Shown here piece after piece: positions 2,210 to 14,740 of a DNA stretch of 64,000 nt. The notes under the pieces were generated by a model. That model did not search any database. It was not told the DNA's origin and was given only the letters and a program-made list of their open reading frames with translations. Numbering within the stretch: position 1 is the first letter of the stretch; each line of letters begins with the position of its first letter. Origin of the DNA: an uncultured bacterium (GTDB lineage Bacteria > UBP4 > UBA4092); the NCBI GenBank assembly GCA_964644695.1, contig CAZXWN010000010.1, forward strand, positions 1 through 64,000. The letters are read 5' to 3'. A program made the position numbers and the translations under genes.

Positions 2210-3049
2210 ATGAGCTGTCACTATTTACAAAAAAAAGAATACGGGTATTTTAATGTCAAAAATCTAAAGACTTGGGCGGCAACCTGCGTCTTGACGGGCT
2301 GTTTGATTTGTAGTGTGATAGGACAAACGGCCTCAGATTTAATGAGTCAGGGGTTGGCTTCCATCCAGAATAAGGATTATAAGGGAGCTGTTAGTAAATT
2401 ACAGGACGCTTATAAATCTGCTCCCGATGGAACTGAAAAAGATAAGGCTCAGTTCTACCTCCTGAAAGCATATTTAAAGTCTGGAGATGAAAAAACTGCT
2501 GTCAATGAATTAGCCGCATTGAAACAGAGGAGCCCCAAATCTCCCGCATTGGATGATGCGTTATTCTTTTTTGCTCATGAGCTGTTTGAGAACCAAGGCC
2601 AGTATGATAAATCCAAACCCTATTTGGATGAATTATTAACCCAATATCCTTCCAGTGATTATGTCGATAAAGCCTTGTTCCAGCGGATGCGTGTTGCCGA
2701 CCGAGAAAAAGACTTTACCAAAGTTGAAGAGTGTTTTAATAAGCTTAATAACGAACATGCGTCTAGTTCCGTAATGGCGGCCGCTACGTTGCGGTATGCC
2801 GAATCCCTCCGGAATGTTAAAGGGGATCCCAAATCAGCGGAGAAGTTCTACCGGAAAGTCGTTGCGGATTATCCCGCCTCTGCCTATGCTCCCCAAGCCC
2901 AATTAGGTATTGCAGAGTTATGGTGTTATACCCTGACCGGTGAATATGGCGTTTCAAACCCAAGAAAAGGGATAGATGAAGCCCAGAAAATTGTCGATAA
3001 ATGGCCTGGGAGCTCAGGCAAAATGTCATCAGGTGATGGCGTTAAATAA
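2210..3049 (+). CDS. N-terminal part (signal peptide + BamD/YbgF-like TPRs) of the frameshifted RHS protein
   Basis: GGAGG SD; hydrophobic stretch WAATCVLTGCLICSVIG; repeated Y-P-x-S-x-x-A-x-x-A TPR motifs; TPR pattern continues in the next frame near 3010. Confidence 0.8.
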   Translation: MSCHYLQKKEYGYFNVKNLKTWAATCVLTGCLICSVIGQTASDLMSQGLASIQNKDYKGAVSKLQDAYKSAPDGTEKDKAQFYLLKAYLKSGDEKTAVNELAALKQRSPKSPALDDALFFFAHELFENQGQYDKSKPYLDELLTQYPSSDYVDKALFQRMRVADREKDFTKVEECFNKLNNEHASSSVMAAATLRYAESLRNVKGDPKSAEKFYRKVVADYPASAYAPQAQLGIAELWCYTLTGEYGVSNPRKGIDEAQKIVDKWPGSSGKMSSGDGVK

Positions 3050-6000
3050 CTGTGGTAAATATGACCAAGCTCAAAAAGTAGCAGAGTCCATTCTCAGTCA
3101 ATATACCTATTCAGAAAACTCTATTCAGTATAGCCATGCCTTGTACAGCAAGGCTTTTTTAGAGTATATGCAGGGACATGGAGATAAGGCTTTAGCCGGA
3201 TATCAGAAGATGGTAGATGAATACCCTGATTGTGCCAATGCAGCAGAGGCCTATCGTGAGATTGCGCGTCTTTATTATTTTGATGGAAAACTGGATGAGG
3301 CAAAAGCCACTGTTGAAAAACTGATTGCAAAATGTCCTAAAAGTCCTTTAATTGATACAGCGAAAGAAGAACTGGCCTTATTAAATCAAAAGATAAATTA
3401 TCGAAATACAAAAACAGCTGAAGCCAAACAGGAAAAAGTTGTAGAACTATCTTCTAATTTATGTGGACCTGTGGCGGTACAGCTGCTTCTCTCTCATTAT
3501 GGAATTAACGAAGATTTGAAGGCGATTGCTCAAAAAGCTGAACACGATCCGGCCGAAGGAACCAGTTTTGCCGGATTAGCACAGGCCTTGAAAGAATATG
3601 GATTCCAAGCACAAGGATACAAGCTTTCACACAAAGCATTAACCAAAATGGCTTATCCCGTAATTGTTCAGCTAAATCACCGACAGAAAGACCATTTTGT
3701 TGTTTTAGAAAAAATGGATGAACGGGGAGCAAGATTTTCTGACTACCAAGGTGTTCATCAGGTCATGGAAAACAAGGAATTTAAGTACCAGTGGACAGGA
3801 TATGCTCTAGCTGTTACGCCCTCAAAACGGGTGAAAGAATCGACGGCCTCTCGTTTTATTCCAATATCAGGGCAGAAACTGACACAAAAACTAATGGAAA
3901 CAGTTATGGGTGGGAATCAGCTTCCTTCACCCTGCAATCGTCCTTGTCCTAATAATCATGTTCCTCCTAGCTGTCCAAAATGTAATTCCGGTCCCAATGG
4001 TAATGCTCAAGGTGGATATAATCCAGGAATGATGCCATCAATGTGGACAGACGAAAATGGTAATAAGTATGAAGTTAATCCGATTGATGGAAGCACAAAG
4101 ATGACAATGACAATTGGTGGTGGAGCTACTAATGCTGTGGGAGGAGGCTCTGGTAATAGTGCTACATCCTTATCTGTTAGCATGGCTAACGGGTGGGCAC
4201 ATACTACTTTTCCAGAGATGGCATTAAGAAATATTCCAGGTGTAGGGAGCATTGTTGTAAATAGATCTTATTCCTCCAGCCGCCACAATAATGATGTTAA
4301 TGATCATTATGGGGATTTCGGTCGTGAAACTCCCTGGGGGACAAAATGGACTTTCAATATAGCGACCTTCTTACTGTTTATTGATGGGGATTTATATTGG
4401 ATAGATGATATTGGGAATAGTTATTGTTTTACTTTGCAAGGTTCTGTTTATAAACCCTTAAGTCGCTATGGTTTGACTCAGTGGTTTACGGTCAGCGGAA
4501 GTGATTATACCCTGAATAAACAGGACGGTAGTCGGTATGTGTTCCATCGGATAGGTACCAGTGATTATGCTCGTTTGGAAAAGATGATCACACTCAGTAA
4601 TGTCACTGTATCCTGTGAATATACTTCAGATACCTCTCGTTATTTGAGTGCCTTGGCAGCAAACGAAACAACCAAACTGACCTTTGGCTATACCAATGGT
4701 AAGTTGACCAGTATTACGGATCCATTTAATAGAGTTGTTAACTATTGGTATGACTCTCAAGGTGATTTGGTACGAATAGAAGATCCTGATGGTTATAGCA
4801 TGTATTATCTTTATAATAGTTTAAGCCAGATAACAGCTACTCGGGATAGTTATAGTGCCGGTAGCATTAATATATACACATACACCTATGGAACAACGAC
4901 TTCACAGATGGATGACCACTGGACCCCTCGGTGTATTGCCATAACCGATTGTTTGGGAAATAGAACCGAGTTTACAGGCAGTCGGTGGTGGGGAGAACAC
5001 TCCGTAGTTATGAAAGATTCTACTGGGACTTTGGTGAAAAATGGTATAACCTACCATTTCAACAATGTGTGGGATAAACTTCTTTATCATACCTATGATA
5101 ATCAGACTTTAATCCGGTATATCTGGGCCGGGAATGATCCTACTGGATATGGTCAGATTACCGCAACTTATGATATGGTTGGTCATTCCAAATTTTATAT
5201 GGTTGACTCAACATATGGATCTACGACTGCATATTATGATGAAACAGGTTTGAAAGCATATTCATATTATGACAATACATTACATGTCATTACTTGTGCA
5301 ATAAATGAAGCAGGTAACAAGACTTTTTATGAATACAACAATTTAAGATTGCTTACCTTAATCATTGGTCCAACGGGTGAACGTACCCAACTGAAGTATG
5401 ATAGTTATGGGAATCTAACGTGTTCGATTGATCCTTTAGGTCAAGTAAGTGAATCCATTTATGACAGTCAGGGTATTTATCTTTTAATGCAGATATCTCC
5501 CAGTAAGGCTACAACTCATTTCTATTATGACAGTTGGGGGCGGCAGACTGCTGTAAAAAATCCTAAAGGATATATCTCTTCCTTTGGTTATGACACGATG
5601 CATCGTTTGATTTGGTCTAGAGATGCTTTAGGTGGATTGACCCAAACCGAATATTATGTAAATGGTTTGGTAAAAAAAGTTACAGATGCAAGGAATTATA
5701 CAACAGAATATGAATATGACCTGCGTAATAGGTTGACTAAAGAGATATATGCATCGGGAAAATATACCCAATATTGGTATGACTCTTTAGATAGAACCAC
5801 TTGCAAACGAGATTCAAGTGGTCAAAAAAGTTATATCACTTATGACAATTGGGGACATTATAGCACTCGTTACTATGAGTCTGGGACGACTTACAGCTAT
5901 TCTTATGATTCAGTAGGGCAGTTGATTTCTTTATCAGACCACCATATAGGTGGAAATCATTCCTTTAGCTATGATTCATTTGGTCAGACCACTTCATATC

Positions 6001-8030
6001 AAAACCCTTGGGGGACGACTACCTATACCTATGATACCTATGGTCGTAGAATTGGATTAAAGGATCCAGATGGAAATACCTATGAGTATATCTATGATTT
6101 TGTCGACCGATTATTTATGGTTCATAATTTTACCCTTGACCAATTTACGATGTATTCCTATGACTCCATTGGAAGACGAAGCATGGAGATCTATCCAAAT
6201 GGGTTAATAACTACTTATGAGTTTGATACCTGTGGGTGTGGCTCTCGAGTTACCAATAATCAAATCTATAAACCTACAGATAGCTTTAACCGGACATCCC
6301 TGGGCGTGAACTGGACTACGACTGGGACTTTGTCAATTGAGACGAATAGATTAAAAACAGGCGGAACAGCTTTAGCCATATATACTATGGGAGGCTCGTT
6401 CAGTGATGTTACGGTGGAAAGTTCAATAATAGTTACTGATAATGCCAGTAGTAAAAATGGATATTTGGTTCATGGATATAGTACGGGAATTTACGGGCCA
6501 AGCTTTAGATATGCGGGATATGACCACGGTTCTGGTGTGCTTAAAATCGGCCATAAAAATATCAATGATAGTACGATATATGTGGATATCAGCACTACTA
6601 TAGGTTGGGCATCCGGGATACCGTTACGAGTAAAGGCGACTGCTTCTGGTCCAACGACATCCTTATGGATGTTGGAACCCTCAGGATATGAGAAGAAACT
6701 GTCGTATGTTTTTAGCAGTTCAAAAGCAGGTACCACTGGTTTATTTAGCAACGCCGCTATTAGCCAATTCGATGATTTTATCTTGAATAACAATACGACA
6801 CTGGTAGCTCGATATGCGTATGACTATGATGCCAATGGAAATCGTATCTCTGTTACAGATAAGAATTATTTATCAACCTACTATTCTTATGACAGCCTCA
6901 ATCGGTTGGTCTATGAAAATCGAGCTGGGGTATACACCCGGAGCTATGGTTACGACTCCGTAGGCAACCGCATCTGGATGTATAACGGAACTTCTACCAC
7001 CTCTTATACCTATAACAACCTCAATCAGTTGCTTTCAGATGGAAGTAAGAATTATTCCTATGATTCCTGTGGCAATTTAATTCAGAAAGATTGGGGTGAC
7101 AGTGGTTGGACATATGGATGGAATGAAGACAATATGATGACATCTGTTTATCCTCCCTCAGGGGGATGGGTTAGTTATCTTTATGACTCTTTTGGCAAGC
7201 GAGTTCAAAAGGCGGGAAGTACTATAAATGGAACTAAGGCTGTTCGGTATTTTTATGACGGCATTAATGTTTTATTGGAAAAAGTTTCCACTCAAGGATC
7301 TGAGGCGGGTTGGCTGAATTTTCAGACACAGGCAGCTTATACCCTGGCTCCAAGTGAAACAAGTCAGATTATCTCTGTGAAAAAAGCAGATGGGTCAAAT
7401 TTGTTCTATCATTATGACCCGATTGGTAATGTGATTCTTATTTCCGACCTGAGTGGAGATACTACTGCTGGATATTACCAGGAAGGTTTTGGTAATGTGA
7501 TGCAGACAGTGGGCAGTGCGGACAATAACTATCATCTGACCACTAAAGAATTAGATCCAGATACCGGATTTTATTATTTCTATGCTCGCTGGTACGACCC
7601 TGAAACAGGACGGTTTATTAGCGAAGACCCTATTAGAAATCTTAATAGATACTATTATGTTGACAATAAACCCCTGACTTTTGTGGACTACATGGGGTTG
7701 GTTGGCTGTACCCCAAAAGCAATGGAAGACTATGCTAATTGTCAAGGTAATAAGCATCCTGGTTATGATAAATGGAAACATTGTTATATTAGCTGCCATC
7801 TTAATCGATGTTTACTGACATTATTCCCTCTTATTACCATTGATATTGGAATAGTACATGAGTTTCTCGGGTGGGAAGATGGTCTAGATGGATCATTTGG
7901 TGATATGTACTCAAACATGACTGGTATAAAGTGCTCTCGGATTTTTTTTCGTTCATGTGAATCCTGTTGTGATAAAAGGAATCCAAGTCAAAAGACAGTT
8001 GATAACATTTGGAAGGCTCGCGGATTTTAA
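2976..8030 (+). CDS. TPR - C39 peptidase - double-glycine motif - DUF6531-like - RHS/YD repeats - RHS core - C-terminal toxin (C-terminal part of the frameshifted gene)
   Basis: C39 motifs NLCGPVAV...GTSFAGL...HFVVL...D; LTQKLMETVMGG; many YDxxGR/YD repeats; core ELDPDTGFYYFYARWYDPETGRFISEDP...NKPLTFVDYMGL. Confidence 0.9.
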   Translation: MKPRKLSINGLGAQAKCHQVMALNNCGKYDQAQKVAESILSQYTYSENSIQYSHALYSKAFLEYMQGHGDKALAGYQKMVDEYPDCANAAEAYREIARLYYFDGKLDEAKATVEKLIAKCPKSPLIDTAKEELALLNQKINYRNTKTAEAKQEKVVELSSNLCGPVAVQLLLSHYGINEDLKAIAQKAEHDPAEGTSFAGLAQALKEYGFQAQGYKLSHKALTKMAYPVIVQLNHRQKDHFVVLEKMDERGARFSDYQGVHQVMENKEFKYQWTGYALAVTPSKRVKESTASRFIPISGQKLTQKLMETVMGGNQLPSPCNRPCPNNHVPPSCPKCNSGPNGNAQGGYNPGMMPSMWTDENGNKYEVNPIDGSTKMTMTIGGGATNAVGGGSGNSATSLSVSMANGWAHTTFPEMALRNIPGVGSIVVNRSYSSSRHNNDVNDHYGDFGRETPWGTKWTFNIATFLLFIDGDLYWIDDIGNSYCFTLQGSVYKPLSRYGLTQWFTVSGSDYTLNKQDGSRYVFHRIGTSDYARLEKMITLSNVTVSCEYTSDTSRYLSALAANETTKLTFGYTNGKLTSITDPFNRVVNYWYDSQGDLVRIEDPDGYSMYYLYNSLSQITATRDSYSAGSINIYTYTYGTTTSQMDDHWTPRCIAITDCLGNRTEFTGSRWWGEHSVVMKDSTGTLVKNGITYHFNNVWDKLLYHTYDNQTLIRYIWAGNDPTGYGQITATYDMVGHSKFYMVDSTYGSTTAYYDETGLKAYSYYDNTLHVITCAINEAGNKTFYEYNNLRLLTLIIGPTGERTQLKYDSYGNLTCSIDPLGQVSESIYDSQGIYLLMQISPSKATTHFYYDSWGRQTAVKNPKGYISSFGYDTMHRLIWSRDALGGLTQTEYYVNGLVKKVTDARNYTTEYEYDLRNRLTKEIYASGKYTQYWYDSLDRTTCKRDSSGQKSYITYDNWGHYSTRYYESGTTYSYSYDSVGQLISLSDHHIGGNHSFSYDSFGQTTSYQNPWGTTTYTYDTYGRRIGLKDPDGNTYEYIYDFVDRLFMVHNFTLDQFTMYSYDSIGRRSMEIYPNGLITTYEFDTCGCGSRVTNNQIYKPTDSFNRTSLGVNWTTTGTLSIETNRLKTGGTALAIYTMGGSFSDVTVESSIIVTDNASSKNGYLVHGYSTGIYGPSFRYAGYDHGSGVLKIGHKNINDSTIYVDISTTIGWASGIPLRVKATASGPTTSLWMLEPSGYEKKLSYVFSSSKAGTTGLFSNAAISQFDDFILNNNTTLVARYAYDYDANGNRISVTDKNYLSTYYSYDSLNRLVYENRAGVYTRSYGYDSVGNRIWMYNGTSTTSYTYNNLNQLLSDGSKNYSYDSCGNLIQKDWGDSGWTYGWNEDNMMTSVYPPSGGWVSYLYDSFGKRVQKAGSTINGTKAVRYFYDGINVLLEKVSTQGSEAGWLNFQTQAAYTLAPSETSQIISVKKADGSNLFYHYDPIGNVILISDLSGDTTAGYYQEGFGNVMQTVGSADNNYHLTTKELDPDTGFYYFYARWYDPETGRFISEDPIRNLNRYYYVDNKPLTFVDYMGLVGCTPKAMEDYANCQGNKHPGYDKWKHCYISCHLNRCLLTLFPLITIDIGIVHEFLGWEDGLDGSFGDMYSNMTGIKCSRIFFRSCESCCDKRNPSQKTVDNIWKARGF

Positions 8031-8268: not shown

Positions 8269-9052
8269 ATGAAGAAATATATATTTCGTTTTGATATGTT
8301 TAATGATTGTTGGGTGTTCAAAAGAGGACCGTGTAGCATCTTCAATATATGATAAAGCTAAAAAGTTAGAAAGCTTAGAAAGAAGAGAAGAAGCTTATGT
8401 CTTATATAAGGTGATATGTATAAAATACCCGGATGAAATTATATGTAGAGATGCTCTTAGGAACATCTCTACATATATCCAAGATAAGGATAGCGAGTTC
8501 ATCTTTGATTTAGCCACTACGATGGAACCTTTATATGAAAAAGGAAAATATACTTCTGATAAAAGATATATGACGTTTATTGCAAATACATACTCAAAAG
8601 CGTCATGTTATCCAAAGGCGATGGCGTGGTATCGGAAAGTCTTAACAAAGTTTCCTGACTTCACTGATGCAAGTTTTGCCTTAGCCCTGACTTATGCTGA
8701 CCAAGAAGAATATGGGGAAAGTACGACCTTATTATTAAAAATAATTGAAAAGAATAGAAAAGATGAACTTTATTACAAGTCGTTGCTAAATCTGGGTGAC
8801 TATAATACTATTTTACGAAACTATGCTGTTGCTGAGAAATATTTGAATGAAGTAATGAATGATTGTAAATATGATGAAATGCGAGCTATCGCCATGTTAT
8901 ACAAGTCAAATATTAAAAATAAACAAGGTGACTTTTCTAAAGAAAGTGAATTACAGAAAAAAATAATAGATATGTATCCCGATACAGTTGCCTCGAATGT
9001 TGTTAAGTCAAAGATTGATAAAAAAAAGAATCCTCGTATTAAATATACTTAA
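8269..9052 (+). pseudogene. TPR lipoprotein with a +1 frameshift in the signal peptide (candidate immunity/accessory protein)
   Basis: GGAGG SD and ATG 8269 are out of frame with ORF 8291..9052. Removing one T near 8284 gives MKKYIFVLICLMIVG-C (lipobox). TPR repeats follow. Confidence 0.7.
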
Positions 9053-9381
9053 GAATCTGAAGTGTTTTTCACGAATGCAATAAATATTCACCTCCCTGCA
9101 TCAGAAATTTAAAGCAGGGAGCGAGAATATTCTTTTGTCCCGTCGGATTACATTCCTCTGTGCCTAAGGTGTTAGGTTGTATAGAAAAATAGAGTCTTAT
9201 CGTTTGTCGTTCTGGTATTTTTATTGATTTTTTCATCTTGTTAAAACTCCCCGCCTTTTTTCCCTGACCCTTTATCCCATAATATCCAAACAATCTTTCA
9301 TGACTATGCCTGGATACCCTTTAAAGGTGTGTGACGGAACAGTTGAGATTACAGAGTTTACTTCCGTATCAAAAATATTTA

Positions 9382-9445
9382 TTGACAGCCACAGGGGAAA
9401 GGTTTAATCTATAAAAATATTCGATAATCGAAATATTCGATATTG
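9382..9445 (+). promoter_or_regulatory. Sigma70-type promoter and probable MarR operator
   Basis: TTGACA(9382)-17 nt-TAATCT; near-palindrome atattcgataatcgaaatat at about 9417-9436, immediately upstream of marR. Confidence 0.6.
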
Positions 9446-9955
9446 ATGAAATATTTGAGGTTTGAAACAATGAAGCCCATAAACAAAAAAGCGCAGGAAA
9501 TGACCGGACTGCTGGACTGGATTATGCAAAATCTGGGTCCGGAACAGGATCCTCCAGAAGAAGATGTTTCCCTCTCCCATACGGAAATCCGTGTGTTGGA
9601 TGCTCTGGGAACTCAGGGGTCCTTACCCATGGGTCAGCTGGCAGAGATTGTCGGTTTGGCTGTGAGTAGTGCGACGGCTGCTGCCGACCGGATGATTCTA
9701 AAAGGATTGGTGATGCGTCACCGTTCTGAGGAAGACCGCCGGATCGTGTATGTATCTCTGGCCGAAAACGGGAAGCGTTTCTATAAACACATGCTGGAAG
9801 GTCGTATGAAAATGTCTCAGACCATCCTGAATGGTTTATCGGAACCGGACCAGGAACGAATGATTAAACTGTTTCGGAAGGTCGTGACTCACTACCAGAA
9901 TGATAATAAAATCGAAAGGAAACCGAAATTATCAGGAACAACCGACGACGCATGA
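9443..9955 (+). CDS. MarR family transcriptional regulator
   Basis: LSHTEIRVL...LAEIVGLAVSSATAAADRMILKGLV.R.RSEEDRR...LAENG motif; start may be ATG 9470. Confidence 0.9.
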   Translation: MMKYLRFETMKPINKKAQEMTGLLDWIMQNLGPEQDPPEEDVSLSHTEIRVLDALGTQGSLPMGQLAEIVGLAVSSATAAADRMILKGLVMRHRSEEDRRIVYVSLAENGKRFYKHMLEGRMKMSQTILNGLSEPDQERMIKLFRKVVTHYQNDNKIERKPKLSGTTDDA

Positions 9956-10030
9956 TCGTCTTATAAGTGAGGCGGTCTCTGGAATAACGAATTACTCTTT
10001 GCTACCAAAGAAACCAATACAAGTCTAAAG

Positions 10031-11308
10031 GTGAACACAATGAATCGAAGGATTCCCATAAAAATGAGGTTTGGACTCTTGATTGCGACCGGACTTCTGA
10101 TGGCCACCGGGTGGGCAGATACAACCTCCCGCCTGGGCATGGAAGACGCGGTGTCCACGGCCCTGGCAAAGCATCCCACTTTGGTCCAGTACCAGGAAGC
10201 TATCAAACAAGCTAAATACCAGCTGGTCATGCAGAAGTCTGTCTATCTGCCCCAGGTGGATGTCAAAGCACAATACAGCAAGGGCAAAACAGAGGATTAT
10301 CCCAGTGAAGATTCTTACACGGGATATGTAACCGGAACACAATTTCTATTCGACTTTGGAAAAACTCCGGCGCTCGTAAAACAATATGCAAAAGCAGTTG
10401 ATGAGAAGAAACTCGCTTTAACGGCCGCAGAGATAGACATTATCTATAATGTGAAAGCTGCCTATCTGAATGCGCTGAAAGCAAAACAACAACTGGATAT
10501 TGCCAAAGAAACAAAAGAAAGCGCCAAACTTCACTTAAAACTCGCCATGGGATTTTATGAAGTGGGTAAAGTCGCCAGACTCGATGTGTCCAAGGCGGAA
10601 GTGGAAGTCGCTAATGCGGAACTGGCGCTGGTAACGGCCGAAAATGATTATCGACTGGCGCAAACATCACTCATCAATACCATGGGGCTGGATGTTTCCC
10701 AGCAGCAGACCCTTGAACTGGTAGATACCCAGTATCAAAAAGAAGCGACTCCGGTGGGAACTCTTTTAGAAGAAGCCGTCAATAACCGTCCGGATTACAA
10801 AGCCTATAAAGTGAAACGGGAAGAATATAAAGCCGCCATTTTGGAAGCCCGGCTGGGTCATGTCCCCACTGTTTCAATGTTTGTTACAGGTTACAGTACA
10901 GGAAACGGTTTTCCCTTAACGGAAAGCGGTACTGCGGGAGTTGGTGTTGAGATGCCCCTGTTTAATGGATTCCAGACAGAAGCTAATTTACGGAGAGTTC
11001 AATCCGGCGCTAAAGGGTTGCAAGCTGAAGAAAAGAAAGCCCTGCAGGATTTACAGCTTGAAGTGACCAACTATTACCTGTTGATTCAAAGTGAACAGGA
11101 GAAAATAGTGGCGGCGGACAAGCTGGTAAAACAGGCGGAAGAATCTTTGAAGTTGGCAACAGGCCGCTATGAAAATGGTTTAGGAACCATGCTGGATGTG
11201 ACCGATGCGCAAGTGTCCTATACAGATGCTCGTGTCAGTCTGGCCCAAGTGATCTATGACTATCAAATTGACTGTGCCCGGCTTTACAAAGCGTTGGGCA
11301 GGAAATAA
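10031..11308 (+). CDS. TolC family outer membrane efflux protein
   Basis: Signal peptide; two OEP repeats (YLPQVD..., RYENGLGTMLDVTDAQ, LYKALG). Confidence 0.9.
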   Translation: MNTMNRRIPIKMRFGLLIATGLLMATGWADTTSRLGMEDAVSTALAKHPTLVQYQEAIKQAKYQLVMQKSVYLPQVDVKAQYSKGKTEDYPSEDSYTGYVTGTQFLFDFGKTPALVKQYAKAVDEKKLALTAAEIDIIYNVKAAYLNALKAKQQLDIAKETKESAKLHLKLAMGFYEVGKVARLDVSKAEVEVANAELALVTAENDYRLAQTSLINTMGLDVSQQQTLELVDTQYQKEATPVGTLLEEAVNNRPDYKAYKVKREEYKAAILEARLGHVPTVSMFVTGYSTGNGFPLTESGTAGVGVEMPLFNGFQTEANLRRVQSGAKGLQAEEKKALQDLQLEVTNYYLLIQSEQEKIVAADKLVKQAEESLKLATGRYENGLGTMLDVTDAQVSYTDARVSLAQVIYDYQIDCARLYKALGRK

Positions 11309-11326
11309 CGAGAGGGATAACAAATC

Positions 11327-12751
11327 ATGAAAAAACAAATGAAATGGAAAGCCTTAATTATTATTGCCATCGTGGCCATTGTGGCCTTGATACTGGGTGT
11401 TACCTACTTTAGTTCATCGAAAAAGGTCCAGGGATTCCGGACTCAAACTGTTGAAAAAGGCAGTTTGGAAAAGATGGTAACAGCGACCGGGACTCTGGAA
11501 GCGGTCACTCAAATTGAAGTCGGTTCTCAAATTTCCGGGACCATACAAAGTATCTATGTGGATTATAACAGCAAGGTAAAAAAAGGACAGTTGATTGCAC
11601 AAATTGACCCTCGTAATTATGAGAGCCAGTTATTGCAGGCAAAAGCCAGCCTGGAAGCCGCCAAAGCCGATGTGAAAAGTGCGGAGGCCTCCTTGGCCAG
11701 TGCAAAGGCTAACTATTCTAAGACAGAAGCCACTATCGCCAGTGCAAAAGCCAATGCCGTTAAAGCTAAATCTTTAATGGAAAACTCCCGGCGGAATTAT
11801 GATCGGTATAAACAGCTTCGTCTGAAAGAACTTATTTCTCAGAGTGAACTGGAAGACGCCGCAACGGATTATGAAAGTGCGCGTTCTGTGTATGATTCCG
11901 CGGAAGCAGACATTAATTCCGCCAAAGCATCCCTGGAAGCTGCGAAGGCCACCATTGCCTCTGCCGAAACACAAATATTAACAGCAAAGGCAGCCCAGGC
12001 CCGAAGCCAGGAATCCGTGAGTCAGGCCGCATTGAATTTGAGTTATACCCGAATCGTAGCGCCGGTCAATGGTACAGTTATTTCCAAGGAAGTGGAAGTG
12101 GGCCAGACCGTAGCAGCCAGCTTATCCGCACCGGTATTATTTGTTATTGCTGAAGACCTTGCCAAAATGCAGGTCGTCGCAAACATTGATGAAGCGGATG
12201 TCGGACAGGTCAAAGAAGGACAGAAGGCATCATTTACCGTTGATGCTTATCCGGATCAGGAATTTAAGGGCATCGTGAAACAAGTCCGGACGGAACCTGT
12301 GACCCAGTCAAATGTTGTGACCTATGAAGGTTTGATTCTGGTGGATAATCCGAATCTGGAACTCAAACCCGGCATGACAGCGAACATCTCCTTCGTAGTC
12401 GATGAAAGAACCGATACATTAACCGTCCCAAATGCGGCACTGCGATTCAAAATGGAAGATGCAGCCAGTTCTTCTATAAAGAAAACAACAGGGTCCAGTG
12501 CGTCAGCCAAGCTGAATACAAGCCGTGTCTATGTTTTGGACAAAGAAGGAAAGGCCAGCCCCGTTGAAATAACCACCGGTATTACGGATGGCAGTTCCAC
12601 CGAAGTATTGTCGGGTGATTTGAAGGAAGGCGATGAGGTCATTATGGGTTACGCCACTCCGGATATAACGGGAACCAGTTCACCCTTTAATCCTTTCAGC
12701 AATATGAAAAAACGAGACCAGTCAAACAAGAGTTCGACTCAAGGAAAATAA
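11327..12751 (+). CDS. MacA-like periplasmic adaptor (RND/ABC membrane fusion protein)
   Basis: N-terminal TM; VGSQISG...VDYNSKVKKGQLIAQID; long coiled coil; LKPGMTAN. Confidence 0.92.
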   Translation: MKKQMKWKALIIIAIVAIVALILGVTYFSSSKKVQGFRTQTVEKGSLEKMVTATGTLEAVTQIEVGSQISGTIQSIYVDYNSKVKKGQLIAQIDPRNYESQLLQAKASLEAAKADVKSAEASLASAKANYSKTEATIASAKANAVKAKSLMENSRRNYDRYKQLRLKELISQSELEDAATDYESARSVYDSAEADINSAKASLEAAKATIASAETQILTAKAAQARSQESVSQAALNLSYTRIVAPVNGTVISKEVEVGQTVAASLSAPVLFVIAEDLAKMQVVANIDEADVGQVKEGQKASFTVDAYPDQEFKGIVKQVRTEPVTQSNVVTYEGLILVDNPNLELKPGMTANISFVVDERTDTLTVPNAALRFKMEDAASSSIKKTTGSSASAKLNTSRVYVLDKEGKASPVEITTGITDGSSTEVLSGDLKEGDEVIMGYATPDITGTSSPFNPFSNMKKRDQSNKSSTQGK

Positions 12752-12752
12752 C

Positions 12753-13526
12753 ATGGCACCTATCATCCATGTAGAGAACTTAACGAAGATATACCGAATG
12801 GGCGATGTGGAAGTCCATGCCTTACGGAAGGTGTCTGCCGATGTAGAACCGGGTGAGTTTGTTGCCATCATGGGCGCCTCAGGTTCCGGAAAATCTACCT
12901 TCATGAATATATTAGGTTGCCTGGATACGCCTACTTCCGGTCAGTATCATTTAGATGGCAAAGATGTTTCCACACTGAGCCGGGACGAATTGGCGGCCAT
13001 TCGAAATCGGAAAATGGGTTTTATTTTCCAACAATTTAATCTGTTGACCCGGACAACCGCTCTGGAAAATGTGGAACTTCCCATGATGTATAACAATACC
13101 TCCAATCGGGAGCGTGAGGAAAAAGCACTGGAAGCGTTGCGAATTGTAGGCCTTGCAGACCGGGCTCATCATTATTCCAATCAACTCTCCGGTGGACAGC
13201 AGCAGCGTGTAGCCATTGCCCGCGCTCTGGTAAATAATCCGTCCATTATTCTGGCCGATGAACCGACAGGAAATCTGGATTCCAGAACCAGTGTGGAAGT
13301 GATGGAAATTCTGCAACGGCTGAATCAGGACAAGGGAATTACTATTGTCATGGTCACCCATGAGAAAGATATCGCTCAATTCACTCAGCGGAATGTGTTC
13401 TTCCGTGATGGAAAGATATTGTTTGACCGTGAAGTCGAAGACCGGTTGGATGCGCAACAGGTGTTGGCAACCATCCCTGAGACTTTGGAAGAAGAATTAT
13501 TGGAGAACGGTAAGGAGACAAAATGA
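12753..13526 (+). CDS. MacB/LolD-type ABC transporter ATP-binding protein
   Basis: Walker [33 protein letters not shown]. Confidence 0.95.
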
Positions 13527-14740
13527 ACCTCCTGTTTACAATGAAAACAGCCTTTATGGCTTTACTGCGAAATCGTCTTCGTTCTGGCTTAACGATGCTG
13601 GGTATCATCATCGGCATTTCATCGGTCATTGTCATGATCAGTGTCGGACAGGGAGCCAAGGCGTCTATTGAGAACCAGATAAAAAGTATGGGTACGAATA
13701 TGCTCATGGTCATGTCGGGGAGTATGAAGTCCATGGGTCAACGACAGGCCGCGGGTTCCAGCCAGACAATGACCCCGGAAGATGTGGAAGCCATCCTTAA
13801 AGAATGTCCGGCTGTTTTGAATGCAACCCCCAATGTGTCGTCCAGTGGTTCTTTAGTTTACGGCAATGCAAACTGGACTTCGTCTCTTTTGGGTGTTTCT
13901 CCAGACTATTTCATTATCCGTGACTGGCAAACCTCCTCCGGTACTGTGTTTACGGAATCAGATGTAAATGGCGCAAACAAAGTTTGTGTATTAGGCACAG
14001 AAGTTGTGGCTAATCTTTTCCCCAATGAAGACCCTATTGGAAAAATGATTCGTATCAAAGGAATCCCTTTTAAAGTCGTGGGTGTCATGGTCTCCAAAGG
14101 TCAGGCGGCGATGGGACCCAATCAAGATGATACAGTCATTATTCCTTACACCACCTTGATGAAAAGAATCTTGAACCAGACAAACATCTCTGGCATTATG
14201 GTGTCGGCCGTATCACAGGACCAAATCGCAGATGCAAAAGAACAGATAACGGAACTCCTTCGTACTCGCCATCGTATTAAAAAAGGTGCTGACGATGATT
14301 TCTTTATTGGAAGTCAGACAGATATCACTAATATGGCAACCTCGACCTCGTCTATTATGACTCTGTTACTGGGTAGTGTGGCGTCTATATCACTTATCGT
14401 GGGTGGTATCGGCATCATGAATATCATGCTGGTCTCGGTCCGGGAACGAACCCGTGAGATTGGGATTCGCATGGCATTGGGTGCACGCTCACGCGATATC
14501 CTCCTTCAATTCATGGTGGAAGCATTCGTGCTTTCTTTGATAGGGGGGCTGGTCGGGATAATCCTCGGAGTAAGTGGTGCCATGTTGGTGTCCAAGATTG
14601 CTAAATGGAGCACCTACATCTCCTTTATATCGATAGTGTTATCTATCGGCTTTTCCAGTGCCATTGGCATCTTTTTCGGATTTTATCCCGCTCGAATGGC
14701 AGCTCAATTAAACCCGATTGAAGCTTTGCGGTTTGAATAA
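13523..14740 (+). CDS. MacB-type ABC permease 1
   Basis: RSGLTMLGIIIG; GGIGIMNIMLVSVRERTREIGIRMALGA; PIEALRFE. Confidence 0.95.
   Translation: MNLLFTMKTAFMALLRNRLRSGLTMLGIIIGISSVIVMISVGQGAKASIENQIKSMGTNMLMVMSGSMKSMGQRQAAGSSQTMTPEDVEAILKECPAVLNATPNVSSSGSLVYGNANWTSSLLGVSPDYFIIRDWQTSSGTVFTESDVNGANKVCVLGTEVVANLFPNEDPIGKMIRIKGIPFKVVGVMVSKGQAAMGPNQDDTVIIPYTTLMKRILNQTNISGIMVSAVSQDQIADAKEQITELLRTRHRIKKGADDDFFIGSQTDITNMATSTSSIMTLLLGSVASISLIVGGIGIMNIMLVSVRERTREIGIRMALGARSRDILLQFMVEAFVLSLIGGLVGIILGVSGAMLVSKIAKWSTYISFISIVLSIGFSSAIGIFFGFYPARMAAQLNPIEALRFE

Follow-up and report, generated by a model that had tools for sequence, protein, structure and literature searches.

Can a toxin of the rearrangement hotspot (RHS) type carry on a single chain both a C39 peptidase and the double-glycine leader recognized by that peptidase, and use the pair to process itself? 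The question is raised by positions 2210-8030 (+ strand) of a 64,000-nucleotide stretch, hereafter the window, of contig CAZXWN010000010.1 (assembly GCA_964644695.1) from an uncultured bacterium of the candidate phylum UBP4. Double-glycine leaders and C39 peptidases are the textbook partners of ATP-binding cassette (ABC) exporters, where they act on the cytoplasmic side. In the family to which the window locus belongs, the same enzyme-substrate pair is found on one polypeptide, behind a Sec signal and at the head of a polymorphic RHS toxin. Because the C39 domain lies behind a Sec signal and tetratricopeptide repeats (TPRs), it should act outside the cytoplasm. The analysis suggests, with a probability of roughly 60%, that the family consists of lineage-specific, Sec-exported polymorphic RHS toxins whose TPR-C39 head cuts at its own GG leader. 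For the window copy, self-processing depends on a break in its reading frame being an error.

A preliminary description of the sequence had treated 2210-8030 as one gene. Three-frame translation instead resolves two overlapping + strand open reading frames (ORFs) in different frames, ORF-A (2210-3049, 279 aa) and ORF-B (2976-8030, 1684 aa). ORF-A, the N-terminal fragment of the ancestral gene, is preceded by a good GGGAGG ribosome-binding site and begins with a signal-like N-terminus (2210-2323, residues 1-38), in which a hydrophobic stretch at residues 26-37 (12-aa Kyte-Doolittle mean of 2.55) is followed by a putative cleavage site, with ...CSVIG before and QTASD after the cut. TPR repeats follow (TPR_14, TPR_6 and YfiO, 48 bits each in a hidden Markov model (HMM) scan). 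Interpretation of ORF-A as a lipoprotein ('LTGC') was dropped, by comparison with homologs, for a type I signal cut between VIG and QT. Signal-like N-termini were recognized by hydropathy in all 11 homologs with complete N-termini. ORF-B encodes the remaining TPRs, the C39 peptidase, the leader-like motif, a Cys/Pro-rich linker, the RHS cage and the toxin tip. The signal-like N-terminus and TPRs reported earlier are therefore real features of ORF-A, but they are not in frame with the C39-RHS part.

The C39 domain (3447-3827, ORF-B residues 158-284) matches Peptidase_C39 (PF03412) with 81.8 bits against a cut-off of 22, and with 87.8 bits in a genome-wide search. Its catalytic residues Cys163, His240 and Asp256 are encoded at 3462-3464, 3693-3695 and 3741-3743, exactly the codons named in the preliminary description, and an Asn at position -2 from the catalytic Cys is common in the family. 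The nearest solved relatives of the family profile are PCAT1 (4ry2; E 9.5e-25, with Cys, His and Asp aligned), ComA and LahT150; the C39-like domain (CLD) of HlyB (3zua) is a much weaker match. AlphaFold2 (AF2) predicts a papain-like C39 fold with a predicted local distance difference test (pLDDT) score above 90, and a Foldseek search with the model retrieved ComA (3k8u; template modelling (TM) score 0.81, root-mean-square deviation 1.9 Å) and LahT150 (6mpz; TM score 0.81), as well as PCAT1 and the StbD-CT toxin. The HMM scan detected no ABC_membrane or ABC_tran domain in the window protein, and no second C39 domain was found in its own genome (3.07 Mb, 98.67% complete).

The double-glycine leader-like motif LTQKLMETVMGG (3879-3914, ORF-B residues 302-313) starts 46 residues past the catalytic Asp, and its predicted scissile bond follows Gly313, between nucleotides 3914 and 3915. 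It agrees in place and composition with the earlier account of a GG motif about 45 residues after the Asp, with Leu at -12, Thr at -11, Met at -7 and Val at -4 but no Glu at -8. The motif is internal on the chain, following the TPRs and the C39 domain, and not N-terminal on a small exported peptide as in classical leaders. It is separated from the C39 domain by a linker (3828-3878; pLDDT ~50) whose length and sequence vary among paralogs. Directly after the GG comes a Cys/Pro-rich segment, NQLPSPCNRPCPNNHVPPSCPKCNSGP (3915-3995), with CX3C...CX2C in the window copy and with one Cys and one Asn invariant in nine paralogs; from its sequence, this segment may give the new N-terminus a disulfide or metal knuckle.

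A word-based search with residues 1-480 identified four other proteins, all of the TPR-C39-RHS type and all metagenomic. When the C39-plus-linker piece was compared by phmmer with 1.84 billion representatives, 1331 matches were obtained at E<=1e-3, including 27 at E<=1e-10. Pfam scanning and inspection of the longer matches revealed six C39-RHS fusions beyond that of the window (P0008-P0012 and P0023), a TPR-C39-plug fragment (P0013) and a C39-DUF6531-RHS fusion without TPRs (P0139). A scan of genome contigs located a family gene at one locus of the metagenome-assembled genome (MAG) 'bacterium UBP4_UBA6127', and a metagenome scan with a five-sequence alignment returned one locus, a near-duplicate of P0005. 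After removal of duplicates (P0157, P0158 and L031 repeat members that were already in the count), 17 distinct C39-RHS fusions make up the family, most of them from UBP4-like MAGs of a single small candidate phylum. Fused C39-RHS genes occur in four of the five species searched in the window's phylum, with one to three long copies each, and the other 56 genomes searched contain ABC-type or short C39 matches only, or none.

The Cys/His/Asp triad is invariant in all 17 fusions. The preliminary description had proposed asking whether the -12/-7/-4/GG pattern is conserved after the C39 domain of such homologs: the pattern [LVI]-x4-M-x2-[IV]-x-G-G is kept in 14 of the 17, with the GG ~35-55 residues after the Asp, and two more members have near-variants. 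Among the 16 motif-bearing members, position -12 is Leu in 13, Val in two and Ile in one; -11 is Ser in seven and Thr in five; -8 is Glu in seven and Gln in five; -7 is Met in 15 and Leu in one; -4 is Ile in 11 and Val in five; and Gly occupies -2 and -1 in 15 members each. The family consensus is L-[S/T]-x-x-[E/Q]-M-x-x-[I/V]-x-G-G. Positions -11 and -8 agree with the classical LSxxELxxIxGG although they lay outside the search pattern, so that the window copy, with its Leu at -8, is less canonical than its family. In a nine-sequence alignment, the sole invariant columns between C39 domain and cage are Met(-7), both Gly residues and then a Cys (C180) and an Asn (N182), while the linker upstream of the motif varies by up to 14 residues. 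Curated leader HMMs gave weak matches on four of the nine linkers, all ending at the GG; on the L020 linker, TIGR01847 (bacteriocin_sig) scored 15.9 bits against a cut-off of 15.7, its match likewise ending at the GG. A loose form of the leader pattern, expected 0.043 times per 79-residue segment of the representative set, lies downstream of six of 90 C39 domains (top representatives with downstream sequence), namely all five RHS-fused ones and one ABC transporter (P0118). As judged from these alignments and counts, the motif after the C39 domain is not a chance match.

Whether the leader helix could dock in the C39 groove, a modelling question put forward in the preliminary description, was addressed with AF2 on the nine-sequence alignment with the window copy first, and again with the 27%-identical paralog L023 first, the linker of which is eight residues longer. 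In the model of the window copy (mean pLDDT 81), confidence is 50 in the linker (model residues 141-150), 82-90 in an island formed by the leader and 45 after the GG; the leader is modelled as a helix at 160-165 (-10 to -5) and a strand at 167-169 (-3 to -1). In L023 the leader has pLDDT values of 87 and 79, a helix at 168-173 and a strand at 175-176, with the GG at 176-177. Confident predictions for two paralogs thus place the leader motif on the C39 domain, in line with the docking proposed earlier.

In the mechanism proposed for the family, a prodomain composed of the signal peptide, the TPR repeats and an active C39 double-glycine peptidase would be joined to the RHS cage by a linker that bears the sequence recognized by this peptidase. 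Once exported through Sec, the chain would dock its leader helix in the hydrophobic groove of its own C39 domain, or in that of a sister molecule, and the peptidase would cut after the GG, thereby freeing the RHS cage from the TPR-C39 head. Later, aspartyl autocleavage by the RHS core, after ...MGL, would set the tip free. Domain content, the intact triad, the family-wide conservation of the motif and its confident predicted docking are directly supported. Export, the cut itself, its action in cis or in trans and the exit of the cage from the periplasm are inferred. Cleavage is favored because C39 relatives cut leaders (PCAT1, ComA, LahT150), the triad is present in 17 of 17 members and the motif in 14 of 17, and docking is predicted. 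StbD-CT, which cuts in cis after a GG, and FapD, a C39 peptidase active in the periplasm, offer precedents.

Several points weigh against self-processing. The evidence for cleavage is computational. Both AF2 runs share one nine-sequence alignment, AF2 may reproduce solved leader complexes, and contact of the leader with the active site was read from confidence and secondary structure, not from coordinates. PCAT-type C39 domains carry an oxyanion-hole Gln six residues before the catalytic Cys; the corresponding Gln, ~6 residues before the Cys, is not conserved here, being replaced by Glu in the window copy and by Ser, Asp, Pro, Phe or Lys in paralogs. In an oxidizing periplasm, a catalytic thiol may be inactive. 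At the motif, the window copy has Leu instead of Glu at -8, and its linker matches none of the curated leader HMMs. P0012 (...QMNSVIGT) and P0013 (...ELKSIWAG) carry GT and AG variants, no motif is recognizable in P0139, and the pre-motif linker of P0012, only ~6 residues long, may be too short for reach in cis. ORF-B lacks a signal peptide of its own (best 12-aa hydropathy of 0.47 in the first ~80 residues). Finally, the exported precursor envisaged in the preliminary description does not exist in the assembled sequence: the signal and TPRs are encoded in one frame and the C39-RHS part in another, and therefore the window copy as assembled would not be exported as one precursor.

The frame break also underlies the most serious alternative, to which nearly an even chance must be given: the break may be real and the window copy a recently inactivated pseudogene, in which case self-processing would be confined to its intact relatives. 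Export would then be limited to ORF-A, as a TPR stub, and any translated ORF-B would remain cytoplasmic. Frame B has a stop codon at 2973-2975 and frame A at 3047-3049, and a +1 change is required between 2976 and 3047, in the overlap of the two ORFs (2976-3049). Its most likely position is ~3005-3014, where 'KWPG' (frame A) meets 'AQAKCHQ' (frame B). Around the break, frame A reads ...KIVDKWPGSSGKM... and runs on to its stop, and frame B reads ...GAQAKCHQVMALNN..., whereas homologs are continuous there, with ...KVIDKWPHSRWSIQALYHQNMAY... in a single frame (pattern KWP[HK]SRW..QAL..). At six homologous loci, the N-terminal part of one long ORF aligns with ORF-A (for L015, with 54% identity across 227 aa). 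Since these homologs are uninterrupted, the ancestral gene was one ORF, and the window copy is either frameshifted or misassembled.

Inactivation is further favored by the location of the gene in a lower-GC patch and by a second family member that is also split by a frameshift, before the RHS core. In that relative (L015, G001:C62), a 219-aa ORF (4256-4915) that overlaps the end of the RHS gene carries on the RHS core (YDPIGNV...ARWYDSEVGRF...DPNGL) and a Cys-rich tip. Against a pseudogene, ORF-B is open for 1684 codons with all motifs intact, as would be expected if the mutation happened very recently or the assembly is wrong. The genome is a draft of 28 contigs, and such assemblies often contain indel errors. 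The break site contains no repeat (a 121-nucleotide stretch there is single-copy in the genome), and no slippery or stop-codon context indicative of programmed +1 frameshifting was seen at the break. In public sequencing data, the Logan contigs of four runs over 2600-3400 end at 2967-2998 and resume at 3031, 3062 or 3297 (one never resumes); no contig of these runs spans ~2999-3030, so that the break is neither bridged nor contradicted there. A real break and an assembly error are both compatible with these data.

Among the readings that concern the family as a whole, the next to be weighed holds that the leader docks but stays uncut, as a latch or pseudo-substrate that keeps the TPR-C39 head on the RHS plug, with a chaperone or auto-inhibitory role like that of the non-catalytic C39-like domains of repeats-in-toxin (RTX) exporters. 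This is unlikely. It would account for AF2 indicating docking and not cleavage, for the loss of the oxyanion Gln and for the occurrence of AG and GT variants. However, every one of the 17 members retains Cys, His and Asp, whereas the Cys has disappeared from C39-like chaperone domains, according to the accessible part of PMC5557850. Moreover, the HlyB CLD (3zua) is a much weaker match, and the GG is kept in 14 of 17 members.

A separate peptidase and substrate do occur in the lineage. In two relatives, a Sec signal is followed by LSDMEMKGVLGG or LTTNEMKKVIGF and then by Cys-rich cargo, beside genes for C39 proteins with signal peptides. In the first (L018, G001:C76, 198-3859), a 153-aa protein consists of a signal peptide, at once LSDMEMKGVLGG, and a Cys-rich domain, and a 193-aa protein with signal peptide and C39 domain is encoded one gene further downstream. 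In the second (L030, G003:C12, 1-5347), in a 196-aa protein an N-terminal hydrophobic segment precedes ...LTTNEMKKVIGFGG... and a Cys-rich domain, and the neighbor of this protein is an 888-aa signal peptide-C39-DUF1573-membrane protein with a multi-transmembrane tail. From their gene content, both operons look like Sec-dependent, ABC-free bacteriocin maturation in trans. The unusual Met at -7 is common to the trans cargo and the RHS motif, which provides independent support for the view that C39 enzymes of this lineage act after Sec export on this type of leader.

These operons also lend some weight to the possibility that the fused C39 domain acts mainly in trans, on small Cys-rich GG-leader proteins or on proteins of a target cell, with the internal motif cut by another enzyme or left uncut; C39 toxins with cellular GG sites as targets have also been described. 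The possibility is nevertheless quite improbable, more so than any other reading except a coincidental motif: this C39 domain is the only one in the window's own genome, the 64-kb window contains the strict leader pattern a single time, within this gene, and the C39 domain is N-terminal, located upstream of the delivered tip and not inside the cage. That the motif resembles a leader by chance, or owes its conservation to structure alone, is hardly credible. Short motifs do recur by chance, and an ABC transporter (P0118) matched the loose pattern. Against this, an expectation of 0.043 per segment compares with five of five RHS-fused representatives, the unsearched positions -11 and -8 match the published consensus, and the unusual Met at -7 is also found in trans cargo genes beside C39 genes.

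Two secreted proteins without RHS repeats, both with signal peptides, carry related arrangements. P0017 (871 aa) has a leader-like motif ~15 residues after each of its C39 domains (LASEEVKVIVGA and LTQEELKQTVGA), and P0063 (2964 aa) has a much weaker match after its C39 domain (VSEAKAQAVTGS, recognized by eye). On sequence grounds, they represent a putative second architecture with a cis C39-plus-leader cassette.

Self-cleavage by the fused C39 domain would build on known parts, namely C39 peptidases with double-glycine leaders, releasing peptidases in polymorphic toxins and cis autoprocessing by C39 domains, and is not a new kind of system. The family shares with the peptidase-containing ABC transporters (PCAT) and ABC transporter maturation and secretion (AMS) exporters (PCAT1 4ry2, ComA 3k8u, LahT150 6mpz) the C39 fold and the Cys/His/Asp triad, as well as leaders that are hydrophobic at -12, -7 and -4, carry an acidic or amide side chain at -8 and have GG. 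Unlike these exporters, the window protein has no ABC transporter part and its leader is internal, 46 residues beyond the catalytic Asp of the same polypeptide; in the family, -7 is Met and not Leu, and the oxyanion Gln is not conserved. For ComA, the accessible part of Bobeica et al. 2019 (PMC6363468) gives the consensus Leu(-12)-X3-Glu(-8)-Leu(-7) before GG, GA or GS, and states that the last 13 leader residues are enough for LahT150.

The preliminary description knew of no characterized example, a statement that now needs qualification. As far as the available text of a 2026 preprint goes (bioRxiv 10.64898/2026.05.07.723447), under reducing conditions the C39 toxin of StbD cleaves itself in cis behind Gly157-Gly158, a site shared by Cpe1. 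StbD-CT (from a CdiA-like protein of Citrobacter rodentium) and Cpe1 (PDB 8ssk, 8ssm), structures of which are among the Foldseek matches of the AF2 model, thus resemble the window protein in having a C39 domain within a polymorphic toxin and, for StbD-CT, in cis cleavage after a linker Gly-Gly. From the same accessible text, however, the layout differs: their C39 domain is the C-terminal toxin that attacks GyrB and ParE, whereas that of the window would be an N-terminal head that stays behind; the StbD-CT GG lies upstream of the C39 domain and lacks a long leader consensus, whereas the window GG lies downstream; and their carriers are CdiA or a type VI secretion system (T6SS) PAAR protein, in contrast to a Sec-routed RHS protein.

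The survey of Zhang et al. 2012 (PMC3482391) describes Sec ('T2SS')-routed RHS toxins with an internal autoprocessing peptidase, as proposed here. In the portion of that survey available, Tox-PLC39 is given as a toxin domain only and not as a releasing peptidase, and the releasing peptidases precede the toxin tip and are not N-terminal before the cage; none described there is accompanied by a recognition sequence of a defined, leader-like kind. The Pseudomonas Fap amyloid system includes FapD, a C39 peptidase that carries a Sec signal and needs its catalytic Cys for activity in the periplasm (PMC5557850, accessible part); as described there, it differs in standing alone, in having an unidentified substrate and in lacking a canonical leader. 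The window protein scores 37 bits against the FapD model, for which the cut-off is 330. In T6SS Rhs effectors, it is the Rhs shell that carries out the N-terminal autocleavage, and a module for PAAR/VgrG loading forms the N-terminal part. Proteolysis would likewise part the RHS cage from an N-terminal module in the window family, but with a dedicated peptidase domain, no PAAR and no TssC. The literature search yielded no description of an N-terminal C39 domain on an RHS protein; subscription journals and the supplements of the 2012 survey and the 2026 preprint, which may list such architectures, lay outside its coverage.

The RHS/YD-repeat cage (4143-7700, + strand) is well recognized by RHS_repeat (124.2 bits) and YD_repeat_2x (98.5 bits), and the Rhs-associated core at 7488-7700 by Rhs_assc_core (60 bits, cut-off 32.5; ORF-B residues 1505-1575); the core ends in ...VDYMGL (Leu1575). 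Of the domains named for checking in the preliminary description, Peptidase_C39, TPR and RHS repeats were thus detected and DUF6531 was not; the window protein has no match to PAAR, VgrG, WXG or DUF6531 at E<=0.01, which bears out the earlier statement that it carries no PAAR, VgrG or WXG tag. Within the RHS body, an insert of ~190 residues (6348-6905, IYKPTDSFNRTS...FDDFI) is common to homologs, has no Pfam match and may be an extra cage domain.

The C-terminal tip (7701-8030, including the stop codon) is an orphan polymorphic toxin domain of 109 aa with eight Cys residues. It has no Pfam match at E<=1, and no other carrier was found among proteins of 926-2947 aa. Tips are polymorphic in the family: the bodies of P0004 and P0006 are 86% identical while their tips cannot be aligned, and the bodies of P0004 and P0157 are 42% identical, yet their tips are similar (27/88). 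Small, Cys-rich tips predominate in the family.

Downstream of the toxin gene, by 260 nucleotides, a TPR protein with a lipobox-like start (MICLMIVGC) is encoded at 8291-9052 (+ strand). It belongs to no recognized immunity family and has no homolog beside the RHS genes of other loci; it is a possible candidate for an immunity or partner protein. No conserved partner gene adjoins family members at seven homologous loci. Upstream of the toxin gene, two tandem paralogous ORFs (675-1031 and 1090-1449) encode proteins of ~118 aa with hydrophobic ends and no Pfam match, at a low GC content (33-37%); these may be orphan immunity-like membrane proteins. GC content rises from ~33-41% in the toxin region to 46-48% farther on (9000-14740), where a MarR regulator, a TolC-like outer membrane efflux protein (236.7 bits) and three more ORFs on the same strand form an efflux operon-like group unrelated to the toxin.

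The window's own genome (98.67% complete) lacks TssC (PF05943), the T6SS sheath protein, and encodes four secretins. Its second RHS gene (L026, G000:C15, 1320-5648) combines DUF6531 and RHS repeats with a TseH-like (cysteine hydrolase) tip and lacks a C39 head. In three paralogous loci, genes for an extracytoplasmic function (ECF) sigma factor and a zf-HC2/FecR/TPR anti-sigma protein lie directly upstream of the TPR-C39-RHS gene (L027 and L023 in G004:C157, L028 and L020 in G002:C3, and L029 and L017 in G001:C21); this arrangement is absent at the window locus.

If self-processing is correct, C39 domains would join the releasing peptidases of polymorphic toxins, and Sec-routed RHS toxins, whose delivery is poorly understood, would gain a defined, mutable maturation step (Cys163 and the GG). 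The family would also offer a clear model substrate for periplasmic C39 enzymes such as FapD. On a broader view, which is tentative and has odds somewhat against it, the candidate phylum may run a Sec-dependent, ABC-independent double-glycine maturation outside the cytoplasm, in a trans form and in a cis RHS form, with the cassette recurring in unrelated giant secreted proteins. The leader would then serve as a proteolytic latch and not as an export signal, possibly gated by redox or, at some loci, by ECF sigma/anti-sigma pairs.

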